A stretch of 38,759 bases of DNA from a virus (lineage: Duplodnaviria > Heunggongvirae > Uroviricota > Caudoviricetes). The stretch's first letter is position 1, and each line of letters starts with the position of its first letter. The notes beneath the pieces are model-generated. The model saw nothing but the letters and a program-made list of their open reading frames with translations. It was not told the origin of the DNA and searched no databases. Below are positions 967 to 29,108 of this stretch, one piece after another. A program made the position numbers and the translations under genes. The stretch lies in the IMG/VR virus record IMGVR_UViG_2706794681_000009; one strand, given 5' to 3'.

Positions 967-1317
967 TTATATACTTGCAGCCGTCACCCATGCTCCATTT
1001 AACAGATACTGCAACGGCCGGTAATACACGCCGCCGACGTTATCTGCCGTATTCTTACCGACATCCTGTACTTTAATTCCGGTAAGAACATTGCCGCCCC
1101 CCAGATTCAGATCCCAGCTTTCCCATGTTCCGGGCATATGTGCGGTCACCGACCCCAGTCTTATGGCGGTTACTGTTCCTGATGAGATAGTGATATCCTG
1201 CGTCCCGTCAAAGGGAACCCCATTAATATTTCTTGGGGTGGCGAGTCTATTCGCGGCAACGGCGGTGCCGTCCGATGGCAGGGCATTCGCCGCCCTGTTT
1301 ACCGTTTCCCGTAAACC
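967..1317 (-). CDS. Alternative tail fibre C-terminal segment (Sv-prime), expressed only after inversion
   Basis: Minus-strand frame continuous from the gix crossover; first ~40 codons identical to Sv (inverted repeat), then diverges, ending NGAWVTAASI. Confidence 0.6.
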   Translation of the reverse strand, partial: GLRETVNRAANALPSDGTAVAANRLATPRNINGVPFDGTQDITISSGTVTAIRLGSVTAHMPGTWESWDLNLGGGNVLTGIKVQDVGKNTADNVGGVYYRPLQYLLNGAWVTAASI

Positions 1318-1319
1318 GA
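1199..1319. repeat. Right inverted repeat of invertible segment
   Basis: Matches reverse complement of 1-121. Confidence 0.8.
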
Positions 1320-1331
1320 GGTTTTCAGGAA
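1306..1331. other. gix-like recombination site (gixR): TTCCCGTAAACCGAGGTTTTCAGGAA
   Basis: Imperfect 26-bp palindrome at the repeat boundary immediately upstream of gin, closely resembling gix/hix crossover sites. Confidence 0.6.
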
Positions 1332-1396
1332 AGCCAGGATTAACTCTGTTTTATTCCTCATGCGACAATTCCGGCTTTTTATAATAAGGAAATCGT

Positions 1397-1969
1397 ATGC
1401 TGATTGGGTATATCAGGGTGTCAACAAATGACCAGAATACGGCGCTACAAAGAAATGCGCTGGAATGTGCAGGATGTGAGCTGTTTTTCGAAGACAGAAT
1501 AAGCGGTAAGACAAGGGAGCGTCCCGGACTTAAACGCGCATTAAAGCGACTCCGGCCAGGGGATACCCTGCTGGTCTGGAAACTGGATCGCCTTGGACGC
1601 AGTATGCAGCACCTTGTCCTTTTAACAGAAGAACTCCGGCAACGCGGCGTTAACTTCCGCAGCATTACGGACAATATTGATACATCCACTCCCATGGGAC
1701 GTTTCTTTTTCCATATAATGGGCGCGCTGGCGGAAATGGAGCGGGAACTCATTATTGAACGTACACGCGCGGGTCTTGCTGCTGCCCGTGCTCAGGGGCG
1801 TCATGGCGGCAGACCTCAGAAACTGACAGAGAAAGAGCGGGAGCAAATCGCCCGTTTGCTGGCTAATGGCGAGTCCCGTAAACAAATCGCACTGATATTT
1901 GATATTGGCCTTTCCACCCTTTATCGTTATTTTCCTGCCTCACCAGCTCCGTCACCAAAAGTACCGTGA
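1397..1969 (+). CDS. gin: Gin DNA invertase (serine recombinase, Hin/Gin/Pin/Cin family), 190 aa
   Basis: MLIGYIRVSTNDQNTALQRNAL... N-terminus with catalytic Ser; near-identity in pattern to Mu Gin; TATAAT and AAGGA upstream. Confidence 0.9.
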   Translation: MLIGYIRVSTNDQNTALQRNALECAGCELFFEDRISGKTRERPGLKRALKRLRPGDTLLVWKLDRLGRSMQHLVLLTEELRQRGVNFRSITDNIDTSTPMGRFFFHIMGALAEMERELIIERTRAGLAAARAQGRHGGRPQKLTEKEREQIARLLANGESRKQIALIFDIGLSTLYRYFPASPAPSPKVP

Positions 1970-2054
1970 CGCTTTTTTGAATTTCCGCAAAACACATATT
2001 TTTCAGCGGTCGCTATTCTGACTCTGTTTAATTCAGAAACAGGCAGAAAAGACG

Positions 2055-4109
2055 ATGTCAGACTCCAAGTGGAAAATGCTCTCCGCCATGCCCGGAGAGT
2101 TTTCAGTCAAGGTTGCCGGTGGCACGGTGGCATTTATTGAAAGCCCTTTCCGCCCTTCGGGTAATAAAGGGGGGATCACCTTCGCAGACTGCGTGATCCG
2201 CTTCAGCACGAAAGAGCCATTATGGGTAATGCCGGTATCCGGTAATCCCAGTGCAGAAATCACCAGTTCAGGCGTGACTGGCATCATTCCAATCACATCT
2301 GACGTGGCCGGAACGCTCACGCCCTCCGACTGGAATGCACCGGATAACGCCGGGCCTTCCGGTAGCACGAATGGCAGCAGTTCAGAGCCGGAATATTACT
2401 TTGTTGTCATTCTCGCGGGTCAGTCAAATGGCATGGCCTACGGCGAGGGGCTGCCGTTACCGGATTCGTTTGACCGCCCGGACCCACGCATTAAGCAACT
2501 GGCACGCCGCAGTACGGTAACGCCCAACGGTACGTCGTGTACATACAACGACATCATTCCGGCAGACCACTGCCTGCATGATGTTCAGGATATGAGCGGG
2601 ATAAACCACCCGAAAGCTGATCTGGCAAAAGGCCAGTACGGGACTGTCGGTCAGGGGTTGCATATTGCCAAAAAACTGCTTCCCTATATCCCACAGAATG
2701 CCGGGATACTTCTGGTGCCCTGTTGTCGTGGCGGGTCAGCATTCACCACTGGAGCCGACGGCTCATTCAGTGAGGCCAGCGGTGCTTCCGCTGATTCTTC
2801 ACGCTGGGGGGCCGGTAAACCTCTGTATCAGGACCTGGTAAGCCGCACCAAAGTCGCGCTGGCGAAAAACCCGAAAAACAAACTTCTGGCTGTGGTCTGG
2901 ATGCAGGGAGAGGCAGACCTTGCCTCAGGAAGCCAGCAGCATAATAGTTTATTCACGGCCATGGTTCAGCAGTTCAGAACTGACCTGGCTCCGCTTGCTG
3001 CGCAGTGCGTGAGTGGAAATGCCACCACGGTGCCGTGGATTTGCGGTGATACCACGTATTACTGGAAAAACGCTGGCACCGATAAATATGAGGCAGTATA
3101 CGGTGGCTACAAAGGCAAGGAAGCACAGAAAATTTTCTTTGTACCGTTCCTGACGGATGAGAATGGACAGAGCACGCCAACGAATGCTCCGGCGGAAGAC
3201 CCGGATATTGTGGCTGTCGGGTATTACGGTGCAGCATCCCGAACCCAGGGCAGTTTTGTTTCGACACAGCGTGACAGCCATTTCAGCTCATGGGCACGCA
3301 GGGGCGTCATTTCAGACCGTCTGGCCTCAGCTATTATGCTCCATGCAGGGCGCACGGCTGAACTGATGCGTGGGCAGACCGTGACACCACCGGATGAGAA
3401 GCCGTCACCTGATACACCATCAAAACCGTCCACGCCACCCGCAGACACCACGACGATGAGTACGCTATTTGCTTACCGGGCATCTGAGTCTGAAGGACGG
3501 TTGACACCACAGGGTTGGGCTGCCGGAGGTGGCAAGGCTCAAATCGTGGATGATGCCGGAGCCAGCGGGGGTAAGGCAATGAAACTGACCAAGGAAACAG
3601 GAAGAGCCCCCTGGTACCTTGAGCATGATGCTGGTAATGGTGCGGACCTGCTGGGTAAAGGTGGTCTTGTCAGTTGTCGTTTTAAACTCGATGGCGCGCT
3701 TACGGCTAATCAGTACGCACTGGCGCTGTACTGGCCGGTTTCTGCCCTGCCGCAAGGGGTTACTCTGGAAGGAAATGCCGGTCATAACCTGCTGGCATCG
3801 TTCTACGTACAGAGCGATGCCACAGACCTTAACGTGATGTATCACAAAGGAAACACGGCGCAGAACACGAAGCTGGGGTCATTCGGCGCATTTAATAACG
3901 AATGGCATACGCTGGGCTTCCGTTTTGCCGGTAACAACAGTATTGAGGTGACGCCGGTCATTGATGGTAAGGACGGGACACCATTCATGCTGTCGCAGTC
4001 TCCGGTCGGCACGTTTACGGCAGACAAGTTGCGCGTGACCGATATCACTAAAAATGCGACTTACCCGGTACTGATTGACAGTATCGTGGTGGAAGTGAAT
4101 AACGCGTAA
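2055..4109 (+). CDS. SASA/SGNH-type carbohydrate O-acetylesterase (NanS-p-like) with Pro-rich linker and C-terminal lectin-like domain, 684 aa
   Basis: Motifs ILAGQSNGMAYGEG and VVWMQGEADLASG; linker PPDEKPSPDTPSKPSTPP; beta-rich C-terminal ~230 aa; no signal peptide. Confidence 0.6.
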   Translation: MSDSKWKMLSAMPGEFSVKVAGGTVAFIESPFRPSGNKGGITFADCVIRFSTKEPLWVMPVSGNPSAEITSSGVTGIIPITSDVAGTLTPSDWNAPDNAGPSGSTNGSSSEPEYYFVVILAGQSNGMAYGEGLPLPDSFDRPDPRIKQLARRSTVTPNGTSCTYNDIIPADHCLHDVQDMSGINHPKADLAKGQYGTVGQGLHIAKKLLPYIPQNAGILLVPCCRGGSAFTTGADGSFSEASGASADSSRWGAGKPLYQDLVSRTKVALAKNPKNKLLAVVWMQGEADLASGSQQHNSLFTAMVQQFRTDLAPLAAQCVSGNATTVPWICGDTTYYWKNAGTDKYEAVYGGYKGKEAQKIFFVPFLTDENGQSTPTNAPAEDPDIVAVGYYGAASRTQGSFVSTQRDSHFSSWARRGVISDRLASAIMLHAGRTAELMRGQTVTPPDEKPSPDTPSKPSTPPADTTTMSTLFAYRASESEGRLTPQGWAAGGGKAQIVDDAGASGGKAMKLTKETGRAPWYLEHDAGNGADLLGKGGLVSCRFKLDGALTANQYALALYWPVSALPQGVTLEGNAGHNLLASFYVQSDATDLNVMYHKGNTAQNTKLGSFGAFNNEWHTLGFRFAGNNSIEVTPVIDGKDGTPFMLSQSPVGTFTADKLRVTDITKNATYPVLIDSIVVEVNNA

Positions 4110-4253
4110 GCAGGATAAAAAAATGCCGCCGGTAAGGGAAAACAAGAAACCGGCGGCAAAAAGATCGTTATATCCAAAGCAAAAAATGCAGTGCACCTTT
4201 TTACCTAACAGATATTACCGGTGTCAACACCATGTCAATAATTGGGAGGGATA

Positions 4254-4436
4254 ATGACATTTTTACAGCTTATTTTATTGTATTTCTGCACGGCAGTATG
4301 TGCGTTATATCTGGTGAGTGGTGGTTATAAGGCCATCAGAAATTATGTTCGCCGCAAAATTGAGGACGCAGCAGCTGAAAAACTCAGTAAAACAGCGCAG
4401 GTAACTCCGCTCCCAAAAGACCCGACCCAGCCCTGA
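4254..4436 (+). CDS. Small predicted membrane protein (~60 aa, one N-terminal TM helix)
   Basis: GGGAGGG RBS 4-10 nt upstream of ATG at 4254; hydrophobic FLQLILLYFCTAVCALYLV segment. Confidence 0.4.
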   Translation: MTFLQLILLYFCTAVCALYLVSGGYKAIRNYVRRKIEDAAAEKLSKTAQVTPLPKDPTQP

Positions 4437-4471
4437 TTGCAGGGCTTTATTCCCGCATAAGGAGGATATAC

Positions 4472-4726
4472 ATGCCAGAAATTAAAGGCACCGTCACTGA
4501 AGACCTGGTAAAACAGGCACTGTATTCCGGTGAAGTAAATAAGTTGCTGAAAGCGCAGGTCCGCAAGGATTTTGAGGCACAAATCGACACTTACGTTGAT
4601 GAAGTGCTGGCAAAACTTATTGGGCCAGCAGTTGCGGCCAGTGATGCTGATAATGAGCCGAAAACCGACGCGCAGCCAGAGCAACCAGACCCGGCTCAGC
4701 CCGGAACTGACAGTACCATGATGTAA
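4472..4726 (+). CDS. Hypothetical protein, 84 aa, acidic Pro-rich tail
   Basis: AAGGAGG RBS 6 nt upstream of ATG. Confidence 0.45.
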   Translation: MPEIKGTVTEDLVKQALYSGEVNKLLKAQVRKDFEAQIDTYVDEVLAKLIGPAVAASDADNEPKTDAQPEQPDPAQPGTDSTMM

Positions 4727-4893
4727 CAATACAAACCGGTGGTGTCCTCTGCCGGTTTGACACTAATGAAAACATCTTTGCCGCTATCCAGCCATATGTA
4801 ATCGCTGGATAGTATTTCGTATTCAGAAATATAGCTGCTTATGGAGCAGTCAATCCTGCTTCCCCATCCGGGCAGGCAAATGAACCGGTATCA

Positions 4894-5187
4894 TTAGTCC
4901 GATTCACGCTTTTGTAGAATCGTTCCCAGAATGCTATACAGCTCATTAGCCTGTTGCTCCATCATTGAGACGGAGGCTATACGGTGCAAAGTGATTTCAG
5001 GAGGTGGCACACCTCCATCTTCTTGCTGTGGAGGAAAAACATAAGATTTAATAAAAAAGTTGAAGCATATGAACTCTCCCGCACTCGAACTGTATTTGCA
5101 GGCATCTGAATAATCGGAAAAATAATCATTATAGATTTCCGCATTTTCAATCATTTTTCGATTTCTCGTCGTTACATGATTGTCCAT
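4894..5187 (-). CDS. Hypothetical protein, 97 aa, AT-rich gene divergent from com-mom
   Basis: AAGAGG RBS upstream; only long ORF in an AT-rich block. Confidence 0.35.
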   Translation of the reverse strand: MDNHVTTRNRKMIENAEIYNDYFSDYSDACKYSSSAGEFICFNFFIKSYVFPPQQEDGGVPPPEITLHRIASVSMMEQQANELYSILGTILQKRESD

Positions 5188-5310
5188 AGCAGCCTCTTAC
5201 GCTGGCAATTAACCAATTGACTTCTATAAATTAGTTGATTTGTTTGCTTTGCGGTATTCAAATGTACAATCATTCAGCACTTATGCGTTACAGCACCGTT
5301 TAAAATTAGT

Positions 5311-5396
5311 GATCAAACTCATAAATTTTCGCTAATGACATTTCGTGTTATTTGTTGTATCAATTAAATAAATCAAATCGATCGTTTTTGTCGATC
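5311..5396 (+). promoter_or_regulatory. mom upstream regulatory region with three GATC (Dam) sites
   Basis: GATC at 5311, 5380 and 5393, the last two within the palindrome AATCGATCG-N-CGATCGATT, just upstream of com. Confidence 0.5.
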
Positions 5397-5443
5397 GATT
5401 GAGTGATAAAGATATCAACAACAAAGCAGGAGGTTATGCGGCC

Positions 5444-5644
5444 ATGTATCGAAACATACGGTGCCGACATTGTAACAAGCTACTGGCACGAGCCAGCTTC
5501 AGTTATCTGGAAGTTAAATGTCCGCGCTGTAAAACCCTCAATCAAATCACATCTCAGAGCGCCACAGAGCACCCCACATACACAAGGAAATCCTGTCGTG
5601 GGGAACAGAAAGCAAGTTACATCCCGTATCATCAGCACGCCTGA
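5444..5644 (+). CDS. com: Com, zinc-finger translational activator of mom, 66 aa
   Basis: CRHCNKLL...CPRCKT zinc-finger pattern as in Mu Com; AGGAGG RBS 9 nt upstream; overlaps start of mom frame. Confidence 0.75.
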
Positions 5645-6335
5645 ACTTATTCACTATAACGACAATATCGTCGGTTATGGCTCCCGTGAGTTACGGGTTG
5701 AGACAATAAGTTGCTGGCTGGCCCGGCTGGTCGTCGTCAATAAACATTACAGCCATCGTTTCGTAAATAATTCCTACCTTCATCTGGGCATATTTTCAGA
5801 ACGGGAGCTGGTTGGCGTAATGCAATGGGGTTATGCCCTTAATCCAAACAATGGTGCACGCGTCGTAACTGGCACGCAGAACCGCGAATATATGGAGCTT
5901 AACCGGTTATGGCTGCATGACTGTATGCCGAGAAACTCCGAATCAAGGGCAATCAGTTACGCGCTCAAACTAATCAGACAACTTTATCCGCAGGTGCAGT
6001 GGGTTCAGTCGTTTGCAGATGAGCGTTGTGGCTGTCTTGGTGTCGTGTACCAGGCAAGCAATTTTGATTATGTAGGCAGTCATGAAACAACATTCTATGA
6101 ACTTGATGGCGAGTGGTATCACGAGATTTGCAAGAATGCAATCAAACGAGGAGGACAGCGAGGTGAACATCTGCGGGCTAATATCGACAGAGCCAGTGTT
6201 CATAAATTCCGTCAGTTTCGTTACATCCGGTTTCTGGACAAGAGAGCCAGAAAACGCCTTAACACAAAGCTATTCAAAGTCCAGCCTTACCCAAAACCAC
6301 AAACAGTTAAAACTGGTTTGAAAGAGAGTGAATGA
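5598..6335 (+). CDS. mom: Mom DNA-modification (anti-restriction) protein; start codon uncertain (GTG at 5598 proposed)
   Basis: Long frame overlapping com 3' end, position at phage right end after com; no ATG in frame near com stop, AAGGA precedes GTG 5598. Confidence 0.55.
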
Positions 6336-6407
6336 ACGCTTAAAAACTCATTCTAAAACTCAAAAGAAAAGCGCCGATTTAGTATCAAATAAGTTGCGTA
6401 TCGGCGT

Positions 6408-6657
6408 NNNNNNNNNNNNNNNNNNNNNNNNNNNNNNNNNNNNNNNNNNNNNNNNNNNNNNNNNNNNNNNNNNNNNNNNNNNNNNNNNNNNNNNNNNNNN
6501 NNNNNNNNNNNNNNNNNNNNNNNNNNNNNNNNNNNNNNNNNNNNNNNNNNNNNNNNNNNNNNNNNNNNNNNNNNNNNNNNNNNNNNNNNNNNNNNNNNNN
6601 NNNNNNNNNNNNNNNNNNNNNNNNNNNNNNNNNNNNNNNNNNNNNNNNNNNNNNNNN
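6408..6657. other. Assembly gap (run of 250 N)
   Basis: Literal N characters. Confidence 1.
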
Positions 6658-7039
6658 TCGCCAGGGCATTAACGTCAGCGGGACCAAGACTGTTTTTTGT
6701 GGCAAGCGTCCCCAGACCAAGATAACCACGGGCCAGACGCTGGGCCTCCGCACCGGCATCAGCAATTTCTTTCAGGTTATTTTTCCGGGAAAAGGCATTC
6801 GCAGCGATAATGGCTTTAATGGACAGCGTAAGCTGGTTTAACTGCGCCTTATCCGGCTGAATACTGGCTTCAGCCAGAATATTCAGCAGTTCGGCCTGGA
6901 GAATATTCAGCCAGTCCTGACCAATCCAGCTGATACCTTTTTGTCCGTCACCTTCGGTAAACCAGGTGGTGGTATTACTCTGCGCCGGTGCCAGCGCAGG
7001 CATATTCGCCACGCCGGAATTATTATCAACATGAAACAT
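6658..7039 (-). CDS. Tail fibre protein, N-terminal constant part, 3'-truncated by gap
   Basis: Starts MFHVDNNSGVANMPALAPAQ..., overlaps stop of upstream baseplate gene (TAATG); runs into N gap. Confidence 0.6.
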
Positions 7040-19319: not shown

Positions 19320-20452
19320 TATTGCATTTCCTCTTTCATTTTCAGGAACTCGGCTTCGGTTTTACCCAACAGACGTGCGGCGGCGATATCTTCAGCCGAC
19401 AGCACAGCGGTGGCGGTCTTTTTATCCGGCACGGTTACGGTGTCGGTCTGAAGAGTGGTCAGAGCCGCAACCGGCTGGCGGGCGTCAAGCTGTGCAGAAA
19501 GTGCCGCGACGCCAATCTGTTGTCCGAGTCCTTCCATGTATCCGCGTTCGCTTTTGAAAATGCGTCCTTCGGACTCGGCCTTATCCAGCAACTGCTCCAG
19601 CGTGGTGCTGCCGTGTTGTGCCGACAGCGCGGCATATTCGGTACGCAGGGCGTTATACGTCTCAACGGGCACATATTTCGTCAGATCAATAGTGCCGCCA
19701 GTTGGTGTGCCTTTTGCGGTTTCCAGTTCTGCCGACAGGCTGGCAACCTGCGTTTTCAGGGTGTCGTGCGCATCCGCACGGGTTTTGATCCCGGTAAGGG
19801 CAGACAGCGCCGCCGTGCCCAGTTCCGGTGTAAATTCGTCACCGTCAGCCACGGTCAGACCGAGCGCCGTCAGCAACTGGCGTAATTGCTCATTCATGGG
19901 GGATTGCTCCTGAGAAGGGGAAACGACATAGAGATCATCAGCACTGAGTGCCGCGACAGGGTTCATACCCGTAATACCCGGATCATTCGTCAGGGAAGCC
20001 ATGCGCAACAGGTAGGGTTCCCCGGTGTCAGCGAAATAATGCATATATGCAGACAGATAGGCATATTCACGGTCATCAATATGTTTTTGTGCCTGTGGTG
20101 TCCATTCAGGTTTAATGAAAATCCCCTGACCCTCACGCCATTCGATGTTTTCCGGCTTAACCCATCCTGCAGCAATAGCCTTGAATCCGTTTTTCTGCGC
20201 ATTCACGGAGTGATGGTCATAATCAATCAGTAACGGCTGATGCAGGGCGGAAAGCCCGGCTTTCATCCGGTTACAGGCGGATTCGTTAATCAGCCAGCCT
20301 TCAGTCGGTTTTTCCGGGCGACCGTCACGGGCCTTTACCCGACCGGCTGGCAGTAACTGACACCATCCGTCGCCGGATGCAGTCAGCGAAGCTGAAAGCA
20401 CGGCTAAACCGGAGGGGCGATTTGCGTCTTTTGGGTGATTTTCTGTCTTCAT
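19319..20452 (-). CDS. Head maturation protease/scaffold (Mu I-like)
   Basis: 377 aa; protease-like N-terminal region and coiled-coil Ala/Leu-rich C-terminus. Confidence 0.7.
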   Translation of the reverse strand: MKTENHPKDANRPSGLAVLSASLTASGDGWCQLLPAGRVKARDGRPEKPTEGWLINESACNRMKAGLSALHQPLLIDYDHHSVNAQKNGFKAIAAGWVKPENIEWREGQGIFIKPEWTPQAQKHIDDREYAYLSAYMHYFADTGEPYLLRMASLTNDPGITGMNPVAALSADDLYVVSPSQEQSPMNEQLRQLLTALGLTVADGDEFTPELGTAALSALTGIKTRADAHDTLKTQVASLSAELETAKGTPTGGTIDLTKYVPVETYNALRTEYAALSAQHGSTTLEQLLDKAESEGRIFKSERGYMEGLGQQIGVAALSAQLDARQPVAALTTLQTDTVTVPDKKTATAVLSAEDIAAARLLGKTEAEFLKMKEEMQ

Positions 20453-20629
20453 ACCGGCAGCATAAGCCGGGTATTTTTGGGGCTGGTTTTGCGGGACTTC
20501 AGAAAGTGCTGACAGGGGGGGAATGAGAAAGGCGCTTCACGCAGATTTTAAAGCCCGTTAAATACAGGTTAGAAAATCACGACACGCGCCTGAAGGGGGT
20601 AAGGTAATACGTTTGCATACCTTAAACCA

Positions 20630-28113: not shown

Positions 28114-28614
28114 TCAGACTTTCGGCAAATCGTAACGACATAACCATTCATCCGCCGAACGGCGGGCCTCAAGACCGGGGAGTTTTACCCCCTTTGAATA
28201 AATCCAGCGGATATACTGCTTACAGGACGCGGGCATCTGCCCGGCATTGATAAGGCGCAGGAGCGTGGAGTTGCGAAAGTTCGTTTCACCGGCCCAGAAA
28301 ATCCAGGAGGCCAGCGCCACCGTCTGACCACGGGTAAGCGGCACCTGAACATGACGATCGATAGCCGCAAAGGCCCATTTCATGTCCTTTTCCAGCAGCT
28401 CCAGACACTCTTCATCAGTTTTTGTCATCCCCGGTTTCACATCCGGGCCGGTATGGCCGTAACAGATGGTGGGGGTGCCGGTGGGATCAATGTACGTGGT
28501 GTTTTCTTTCCCTTCCCAGTAGCCGGTGTAGTGCGTGGCAATGGTGAACGTCCCGGCTCCGGCCAGAACAAGGGCAATCAGCTTTTTACGCAGGGGTGCG
28601 GGGAGTTTTGGCAT
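28114..28614 (-). CDS. lys: SAR endolysin (T4-lysozyme-like muramidase with N-terminal signal-anchor)
   Basis: N-terminal LIALVLAGAGTFTIATHY hydrophobic segment followed by EGKENTTYIDPTGTPTICYGHT catalytic region. Confidence 0.75.
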   Translation of the reverse strand: MPKLPAPLRKKLIALVLAGAGTFTIATHYTGYWEGKENTTYIDPTGTPTICYGHTGPDVKPGMTKTDEECLELLEKDMKWAFAAIDRHVQVPLTRGQTVALASWIFWAGETNFRNSTLLRLINAGQMPASCKQYIRWIYSKGVKLPGLEARRSADEWLCRYDLPKV

Positions 28615-28685
28615 TGTTACGCTGTCTCATGGTGTTCTCTGAGTCAGCGTAACCGTGAGGAAAAGGGGGCAGGATTTGCGGAATA

Positions 28686-29108
28686 TCAGAAAAGCCGTGG
28701 CTGCGTGCGTTCCTGATGCAGGCGACGCTGGTTGCGGATAACGGAGTAAATCTGCGTCTCTGACATCTGGTAGTGGCGGCGCAGGGTTTCAATTTTTTCG
28801 CCCTGGCTCCAGCGGGAAAAAATTTCATTATTGCGCAGTTCGGTGAAAAGGGATTCACCGACCGGGAGATAATAACCACGCCCGCCCATGTACCCGGCCT
28901 GTGCGGCTGCAACCTTACGGGCAAGCATTCCCGCCTGAGCAGGTTCAATCCCCTGACGGTGCAGTTCAGCACTGATCACATCAACCAGGTCCCGCAGCGT
29001 GCCGGGCCAGTTCTTTTTCAGCTCATCATCAGGAATATCATCCAGACGGTCAATCAGCGCGTGCAGCTGTTCGCTGTCACCAAACATGCTCATCTGTGTT
29101 TCAGCCAT
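28686..29108 (-). CDS. Mor/C-family transcription activator, 140 aa
   Basis: Size identical to Mu C; C-terminal HTH; located between gemA-like gene and lys. Confidence 0.7.
   Translation of the reverse strand: MAETQMSMFGDSEQLHALIDRLDDIPDDELKKNWPGTLRDLVDVISAELHRQGIEPAQAGMLARKVAAAQAGYMGGRGYYLPVGESLFTELRNNEIFSRWSQGEKIETLRRHYQMSETQIYSVIRNQRRLHQERTQPRLF

Follow-up and report, generated by a model that had tools for sequence, protein, structure and literature searches.

The closest described relatives of the locus considered here belong to bacteriophage Mu, in which a DNA-modifying enzyme, Mom, is encoded together with Com, an RNA-binding translational activator. A 2026 study showed that Mu Mom transfers glycine from Gly-tRNA(Gly) onto N6 of adenine in double-stranded DNA, the adduct rearranging to N6-carbamoylmethyl-adenine, that R111, S124, D149, R151, W48, H58, Y59, Y159 and W181 are essential or important, and that a helix-turn-helix (HTH)-like insertion (Mu residues about 175-209) is needed for activity (PMC13219725). 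The RNA target of Com was defined by systematic evolution of ligands by exponential enrichment and by selective 2'-hydroxyl acylation analysed by primer extension as CC(N)2-3GAG in a hexaloop hairpin, followed directly by a stem in which the start codon is sequestered; the GUG start of Mu mom lies within this stem of the translation-inhibition structure (TIS) (PMC6483171). Here, this system is compared with the com-mom operon of IMG/VR virus record IMGVR_UViG_2706794681_000009 (Caudoviricetes), a stretch of 38,759 nucleotides, referred to below as the window, which is by its sequence a Mu-like transposable prophage of the Sp18 type from E. coli, with com-mom at its right end.

A sequence-only reading of positions 5311-6335 had described a complete, epigenetically controlled anti-restriction module as known from Mu. 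This description stands in part: the com and mom genes are intact and the RNA elements addressed by Com are present, but the circuit of the late activator C finds no support. We consider it very probable that the window holds an intact Mu-type com-mom operon in which mom is unmasked by Com, with probable gating by Dam and OxyR at the promoter and a doubtful dependence on C. The module as such is already known, being a textbook anti-restriction operon of which identical copies are annotated in many E. coli genomes; what is mildly new is that its control regions fall into two architectural classes and that the class of the window has no C site.

The com and mom genes

The Com-like open reading frame (ORF) noted earlier at 5444-5644, overlapping a long frame that runs to 6335, is present on the plus strand, and the two products match the Pfam families Zn_ribbon_Com (PF10122) and Mom (PF25680), respectively. 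com is predicted to encode a 66-residue CxxC...CxxC zinc-ribbon translational activator, starting at ATG 5444, 10 nt after a Shine-Dalgarno sequence, AGGAGG, that can be read at 5428-5433 on the same strand. Com reaches 47.4 bits against PF10122 (E=1.3e-12; cut-off 22.9 bits) and is 44% identical to Mu Com, whose four cysteines are kept, C7, C10, C26 and C29 aligning to C6, C9, C26 and C29 of Mu. In RefSeq, the coordinates of WP_014334043.1 match com in identical prophages; there the protein, identical to that of the window, bears the product name ‘Com family DNA-binding transcriptional regulator’, which is misleading because Mu Com is an RNA-binding translational activator.

That the product of 5598-6335 belongs to the Mom family is borne out by a match to PF25680 covering profile positions 1-202 of 202 (E=1.6e-77), by 77% identity to Mu Mom over the full length, and by a gapless alignment of 229 residues to the Mu Mom structure (PDB 8BV8, E=2.4e-123). 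On these grounds, mom (5598-6335, plus strand, GTG start) is predicted to encode a 245-residue GNAT-fold, tRNA(Gly)-dependent adenine N6 glycyl-transferase. All nine residues found essential or important in Mu (W48, H58, Y59, R111, S124, D149, R151, Y159 and W181, in a numbering that fits the 241-residue RefSeq form of Mu Mom) are invariant in the pairwise alignment, where they appear as W40, H50, Y51, R103, S116, D141, R143, Y151 and W173 when counted from GTG 5598. The HTH-like insertion is present, in a highly conserved and gapless part of the alignment. The coordinates of WP_000528246.1 in RefSeq match mom in identical prophages, and the identical protein is named Mom, a name that apparently was not derived from a hidden Markov model (HMM) in the NCBIfam library; our own NCBIfam HMM search returned no Com or Mom model above cut-off. 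With com ending at 5644 and mom starting at 5598, the genes overlap by 47 nt in one operon, and both read as coding-intact. We regard the identities of the two proteins as close to certain. Mom of the window would likewise place glycine from Gly-tRNA(Gly) on adenine N6 in double-stranded DNA, the resulting N6-carbamoylmethyl-adenine blocking many restriction enzymes, and the phage DNA released from lysogens with this prophage should accordingly withstand many adenine-sensitive restriction enzymes.

The start codon of mom had been assigned to GTG 5598 for want of an ATG near the com stop, and this assignment agrees with the comparison to Mu. Only three in-frame starts precede the Mom domain (GTG 5403, ATG 5436 and GTG 5598), none of them an ATG near the com stop, and GTG 5598 aligns with the Mu valine codon at L001:1458 (L numbers denote loci of our survey), the GUG start established by experiment in Mu. 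In a sample of 14 Com lineages drawn from genome and viral collections, 13 loci from 11 lineages have a GTG 23-25 codons before the conserved GYGS motif; in four loci, including L024 from a 93%-identical E. coli relative, this GTG is the sole possible start. A longer Mom of 299 residues, initiated at ATG 5436 in a frame that stays open back to 5403 across com, could be envisaged, since the frame is indeed open from 5403 and ATG 5436 follows just after AGGAGG. This appears extremely improbable: no more than 2 nt part ATG 5436 from the Shine-Dalgarno sequence, the extension matches nothing in Pfam and is interrupted by a stop in L024, where the GTG is the only start, and the Mom domain begins only at residue 96 of the long frame. 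Removal of the 10 residues ahead of the GUG, moreover, is tolerated in Mu (PMC13219725). A long Mom from either ATG 5436 or GTG 5403 was rejected on the stop in L024 and on the missing domain match, and the long open frame back to 5403 is considered accidental because the upstream frame of L024 is closed by a stop.

Proposed Com-dependent translation of mom

Two RNA elements corresponding to those of Mu surround the start of mom. A predicted Com-binding hairpin, GCGC[CACAGA]GCAC (loop in brackets), lies at 5559-5572 on the plus strand and contains the CC(N3)GAG motif as CCACAGAG at 5562-5569. It is directly followed by the TIS stem-loop (5572-5603, plus strand), obtained as the minimum-free-energy fold, whose 5' arm (C)CCCAC (5572-5577) pairs with the 3' arm GUGGG(G) (5598-5603) holding the mom start codon, and whose loop carries a Shine-Dalgarno-like AAGGAA at 5584-5589. 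The 65 nt from 5548 to 5612 fold with the TIS stem at -14.3 kcal/mol, the Mu counterpart at -12.1 kcal/mol. Nine lineages were aligned, and none of them departs from the five base pairs of the TIS. All four pairs of the hairpin vary on both sides in that alignment (A-U/G-C, U-A/C-G, G-C/A-U and C-G/U-A), with 97.5% of the cells paired and an observed covariation score that none of 500 shuffles matched. The second hairpin pair is a C.A mismatch in the window and in L053, one step between the U-A of Mu and the C-G of L005 (Edwardsiella). A search of Rfam identified no family, the sole match, to IS102 RNA at E=0.59, being noise.

Taken together with the conserved Com protein, these elements make it likely that translation of mom is unmasked by Com. 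In the proposed mechanism, the strong Shine-Dalgarno sequence would drive translation of Com from a dicistronic com-mom mRNA; the zinc ribbon of Com would then bind the loop CC-ACA-GAG of the 5559-5572 hairpin and open the adjacent CCCAC/GUGGG stem, which when closed would hide AAGGAA and GUG 5598, and opening of the stem would allow translation of Mom. In two other loci, L053 (1295-1347) and L054 (1290-1344), the com leader has a CCUCC...GGAGG that could pair and hide the Shine-Dalgarno sequence of com itself, an element that is lacking in the window.

The same control elements are also found in front of another enzyme. In L026 (1610-2816, E. coli DETEC-S792) and L002 (6110-6320, a Mu-like phage inside an Stx2c phage), com, the hairpin, the TIS and the GTG are the same and the sequences are identical through GTGGGGAAC, and from codon 4 the ORF encodes a 350-residue C5-cytosine DNA methyltransferase (PF00145, E=1.6e-42), not Mom. 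The comparison indicates that in these sister prophages the Com/TIS cassette is recombined onto a different DNA-modification enzyme. The cassette would in that case be a portable control unit, the same GTG and stem driving a cytosine methyltransferase. In addition, about 40 Mom homologues (66-70% identical; 62% for L018) occur without com in the middle of 40-50 kb phages (L012-L015, L018 and L073-L106, from Serratia, Yersinia and other prophages). Several of these mom genes are preceded by a conserved, GC-rich and possibly structured leader (gatgggcgccccggaaagttgccgctctccggggctg...), which suggests that com-less mom is controlled by different, uncharacterised means.

The control region upstream of com

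Upstream of com, the sequence-only reading had listed three GATC sites, two of them inside a palindrome, and had taken the cluster for the Dam-methylated switch of Mu. The three sites (5311, 5380 and 5393) are present. Two of them, GATC 5380-5383 and 5393-5396, both also PvuI sites, are held by a perfect inverted repeat at 5376-5400, AATCGATCG (5376-5384)-N7-CGATCGATT (5392-5400), with 9-bp arms and a 7-nt spacer. DNA similarity to Mu begins only inside mom, and the GATC region is homologous by eye, reading gaatcaattaaatcGATCggtaatacaGATCgatt in Mu and gtatcaattaaataaatcaaatcGATCgtttttgtcGATCgatt in the window; from this match, GATC 5380 and 5393 correspond to GATC II and III of Mu, with a 13-bp spacing in both and the same flanks, aaatcGATCg and GATCgatt. 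The homology to Mu holds for this pair but not for the cluster as a whole: GATC I of Mu (GATCGAATCAATT) is lost, the window having GTATCAATT (GTAT) in its place, and the third site (5311-5314) is unconserved. This site is situated within the spacer of an element that resembles a promoter (5299-5327), is absent from L024, L025, L026 and L002, which have AATC instead, and falls outside the conserved block, so that it is probably not part of the conserved switch.

This block is a non-coding control region (5335-5443, plus strand), delimited by the start of homology to other E. coli Mu-like prophages at 5335. Among five variants, 5349-5401 and 5415-5443 are nearly invariant and 5402-5414 is variable, whereas the sequence 5' of 5335 is unrelated; it is 5' of 5335 (including GATC 5311) and in 5402-5414 that the sub-lineage of the window and L044 is distinct. 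From 5335 or 5349 on, about 217 further E. coli genome records share the region, and in these com-mom is about 93% identical and the frames are open. Three GATC sites within 86 bp occur twice in the window, as compared with 3.2 times expected for random placement, and when the 256-bp intergenic region was shuffled 20000 times, 971 of the shuffles contained at least three. The GATC triple was rejected as a statistical signal, its count being within chance and its third site unconserved. The 13-bp-spaced pair is the only one in the window (0.33 expected), and it exceeds chance because of its homology, not because of the GATC count. Across the comparative survey (100 loci, 14 Com lineages sampled), 13-bp GATC pairs lie 5' of com in eight lineages and 18-bp pairs in three more, the three marine lineages having none; no GATC cluster was found at the roughly 40 com-less mom loci surveyed.

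A putative OxyR site can be placed over the pair at 5359-5395, with half-sites at 5359-5373 and 5381-5395. It agrees with the consensus ATAGnTnnnAnCTAT-N7-ATAGnTnnnAnCTAT at 13 of 20 positions, which is among the three best of the 38,000 37-mers of the window, and the best register in Mu, which relates to GATC II in the same way, likewise scores 13 of 20. The GATC pair encloses exactly the right half-site (G-ATCG...CGAT-C). In P22 gtr, 13-bp GATC pairs each fill one OxyR half-site and methylation abolishes binding, the proximal pair overlapping the promoter with GATC4 at -33 (PMC2909390). For Mu, the coordinates of the OxyR and C footprints rest in part on secondary citations (PMC3378877, PMC4461284 and PMC2909390). 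In the window, Dam methylation of GATC 5380 and 5393 would probably gate transcription, unmethylated DNA being bound by OxyR; we find such gating plausible, the balance being slightly in its favour.

The perfect inverted repeat might instead be the operator of another dimeric protein, of phage or host origin, or fold as an RNA hairpin within a long leader of com whose transcription starts at the promoter-like elements at 5299-5327 or 5336-5363. The two elements have scores of 9.2 and 5.8, the background median being 4.8, the palindrome would be transcribed from either, and the OxyR match is modest. Such a role is nevertheless unlikely, given that the same pair with the same spacing belongs to the OxyR/Dam region of Mu, where it is not transcribed, that conservation across genera concerns the GATC tetranucleotides and their 13-bp spacing rather than the palindrome arms, and that the 5299-5327 element is lineage-specific and situated in DNA of 34% GC, in which such matches arise easily. 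The palindrome was also considered as a terminator and rejected, as it is terminator-like only on the minus strand, where nothing is transcribed towards it.

With gating by Dam and OxyR retained as the favoured role of the pair, a dicistronic com-mom mRNA would arise from a weak promoter within 5335-5425, and we infer both the position of this promoter and the timing of expression. A rough position-weight scan delimited a candidate weak-promoter zone at 5336-5410 (plus strand), and this looser scan yielded three promoter candidates, none of them decisive; all promoter scans were rough, and the looser one used hexamer frequencies that are textbook approximations. The first candidate, ATGACA (5336-5341) with TATCAA (5358-5363), is conserved in the lineage. 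The second, a -10 element GATAAA at 5405-5410, is the positional counterpart of the TATACT, TATAGT and TAGATT boxes described below, and the third, TTTAAA-17-TAAATT (5299-5327), with GATC 5311 in its spacer, occurs only in the sub-lineage of the window and L044.

The requirement for the C activator, which had been carried over from Mu by the sequence-only reading, is not borne out by the comparison. In the window, 51 nt separate the proximal GATC from the com ATG, as compared with 78 nt in Mu, and about 30 bp holding the C-binding site and T-tract of Mu are absent. The missing stretch, ttatgccccaataaccacactcaaccc...tttttt, corresponds to the region of Mu that is footprinted by C. Binding of C to restriction fragments, as reported in PMC3378877, points to the same region. 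The minus strand carries a gene for a C homologue at 29108-28686 (phrog_532, Mor/C family late activator, E=1.4e-44); because it is only 40% identical to Mu C, the likely C site was derived from the lys-type and I-type late promoters of the phage itself, the regions of which have a common motif, TCCGCAAAnCCnGCCCC. No match to this late-promoter motif at 14 or more of 22 positions was found in 5188-5443, and neither a Mu-type C site nor any C-rich element was found 5' of com. The 28-nt motif TTTCTGAnnTnCCGCAAAnCCnGCCCC, common to the regions 5' of the endolysin (28614-28720) and protease/scaffold (20452-20530) genes on the minus strand, is probably the binding site of the C-type late activator of the window and is unlike the C sites of Mu.

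Regulation exactly as in Mu, with the three GATC sites forming an OxyR site 5' of a C-activated promoter and C strictly needed, would be in keeping with the encoded C homologue, with the homology of the GATC pair, and with the lack of a good constitutive promoter, which fits activator dependence. It is an unlikely arrangement here, considering the absent C-site segment and the shortened distance to the com ATG, the lack of a late-promoter motif upstream of com, and the loss of Mu GATC I together with the non-conservation of GATC 5311. A dependence of this operon on C in any form is regarded as doubtful.

Among the loci with 13-bp pairs, comparison separates two classes of control region. In the long, Mu-like class, the proximal GATC is 71-83 nt before com and the -10 boxes are 47-57 nt after the distal GATC. 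In the short class, comprising the window, L044, L005, L053 and L054, the proximal GATC is 51-57 nt before the com ATG, and the boxes TAGATT (L005), TATACT (L053) and TATAGT (L054) are 24-26 nt after the distal GATC, those of L053 and L054 being 8-9 nt after the proximal one. The spacing of 24-26 nt from the distal GATC places the GATC pair of the short class in the -35/spacer region. Since the pair of the window is about 30 bp closer to com than in Mu, at or over the core promoter, OxyR would act by direct occlusion of the core promoter and not upstream of an activator. A class without room for a C-activator site would mean that the Mu paradigm of mom regulation may fail even in close relatives. 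Taken further, by analogy with agn43 and gtr, the short control region could be a C-independent switch with one OxyR site whose 13-bp GATC pair lies on the core promoter. This is quite unlikely; if it were true, the methylation of two adenines would set Mom expression, possibly in a heritable and phase-variable manner in lysogens, in place of the late-gene timer of Mu.

Several observations weigh against an operon controlled by Com and by Dam/OxyR at a weak promoter. The strict consensus scan of the plus strand (4700-6420) found no sigma-70 promoter, and GATAAA is degenerate and situated in the most variable patch of the E. coli variants. The OxyR match of 13 of 20 is to be read against 12 of 20 matches, which are common in this AT-rich region, and the register of the site is not the same in all genera. 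The C.A mismatch weakens the Com hairpin, which alone has -1.7 kcal/mol. Finally, without an activator site only the weak promoter and the requirement for Com are seen to silence a toxic gene in dam+ lysogens. On some of the same grounds, the module might be coding-intact but transcriptionally silent or decaying, with phage DNA no longer protected: the -10 candidate reads GATAAA in the window, its counterpart in the other variants from E. coli being GAGAAA or GAAGCA, and some relatives have the cytosine methyltransferase in place of mom. We consider this very unlikely, as no fewer than 15 complete genomes have identical and intact ORFs, essential residues and RNA elements, and the 217 or so further E. 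coli records keep an open com-mom.

Prophage context and comparison with known systems

The minus strand of the window, from about 38.6 kb down to 6.7 kb, encodes a repressor, transposase A/B, the C-type late activator, endolysin, and head, tail and baseplate genes. The plus strand from 1 to 6.4 kb carries the G segment (1-1335, inverted relative to L003) and, within the stretch from gin to mom plus the right end (1193-6407), a Gin-type invertase (1397-1969) and three cargo genes, followed by com-mom. The interval between invertase and com (2055-5187), about 3.4 kb of cargo that is absent from Mu, contains on the plus strand genes for a 684-residue DUF6645 protein (phrog_143), a DUF1378 protein (4242-4436) and a DUF826 protein (4472-4726), and on the minus strand a divergent small ORF encoding 97 residues (4894-5187), whose counterpart in other variants from E. 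coli is a frameshifted pseudogene.

At least 15 complete E. coli chromosomes match positions 4000-6407 at 100% identity. Their RefSeq annotation has a Com-family protein where the window has 5444-5644 and Mom where it has 5598-6335, after which come the end of the prophage and host DNA. E. coli DLI.5a (NZ_CP103972) and AF39 (NZ_OZ547136) are examples of strains with the identical sequence. Comparison with the ends of relatives shows that the right-end region of the prophage begins at 6336-6407 (plus strand), and its terminus (...CGCCGCGCTATA), placed from the same relatives, is expected at about 6463, within an N mask (6408-6667); L003, L028, L029, L031 and L034 have differing host DNA after the same end, and the contig of L033 stops there. 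The order of the window is not colinear with complete genomes: the 260-N mask covers a junction, from 6668 onwards of which follows the reverse complement of the 5' part of the tail-fibre gene and of the baseplate genes. This join of the right end to inverted tail-fibre sequence may have arisen in scaffolding or assembly, at the inverted repeat of the G segment, or may be a real rearrangement.

Among known systems, agn43 and P22 gtr resemble the window in having GATC sites in OxyR half-sites, and the half-site of gtr that is filled by a 13-bp pair and overlaps the promoter has the geometry suggested for the window (PMC2909390). They differ from it in being phase-variable surface-antigen genes with experimentally mapped sites, whereas the window is known from sequence alone and has one pair, not two. 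A com homologue directly 5' of a restriction-protective DNA-modification gene is also found in FluMu Hin1523, Pnm1 Nma1821, Hia5 and phage B3 ORF47/48 (PMC3299994); the downstream gene of these modules encodes an S-adenosylmethionine methyltransferase, whereas that of the window encodes a true Mom of the GNAT type. Sp18-type prophages of E. coli O157 and others have the same gene calls as the window (WP_014334043.1 and WP_000528246.1), next to variants of about 93% identity, and Sp18 has been named as a Mu-like phage that encodes Mom together with the regulators of Mom; Mu-like phages with this set of genes in the same place are known (PMC3299994).

The most extensive comparison is with the com-mom operon of Mu itself (NC_000929, 35768-36602). 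The two differ in the modest identity of their Com proteins, in GATC I and the regular second hairpin pair that only Mu has, and in the C-site/T-tract segment, the absence of which leaves the GATC pair of the window abutting the promoter. They differ also in the cargo that parts gin from com in the window, the GATC cluster of Mu by contrast including the stop codon of gin; an atcaattaa just 5' of the GATC pair of the window resembles a remnant of the gin 3' end. In common they have the same gene pair, overlapping by 50 nt in Mu and by nearly as much in the window, a Mom with the essential residues kept, the shared Com cysteines, a GUG start in a CCCAC/GUGGG stem next to a Com hairpin with CC(N3)GAG, the GATC II/III pair with identical spacing and flanks, and a location in a transposable prophage, at its right end.

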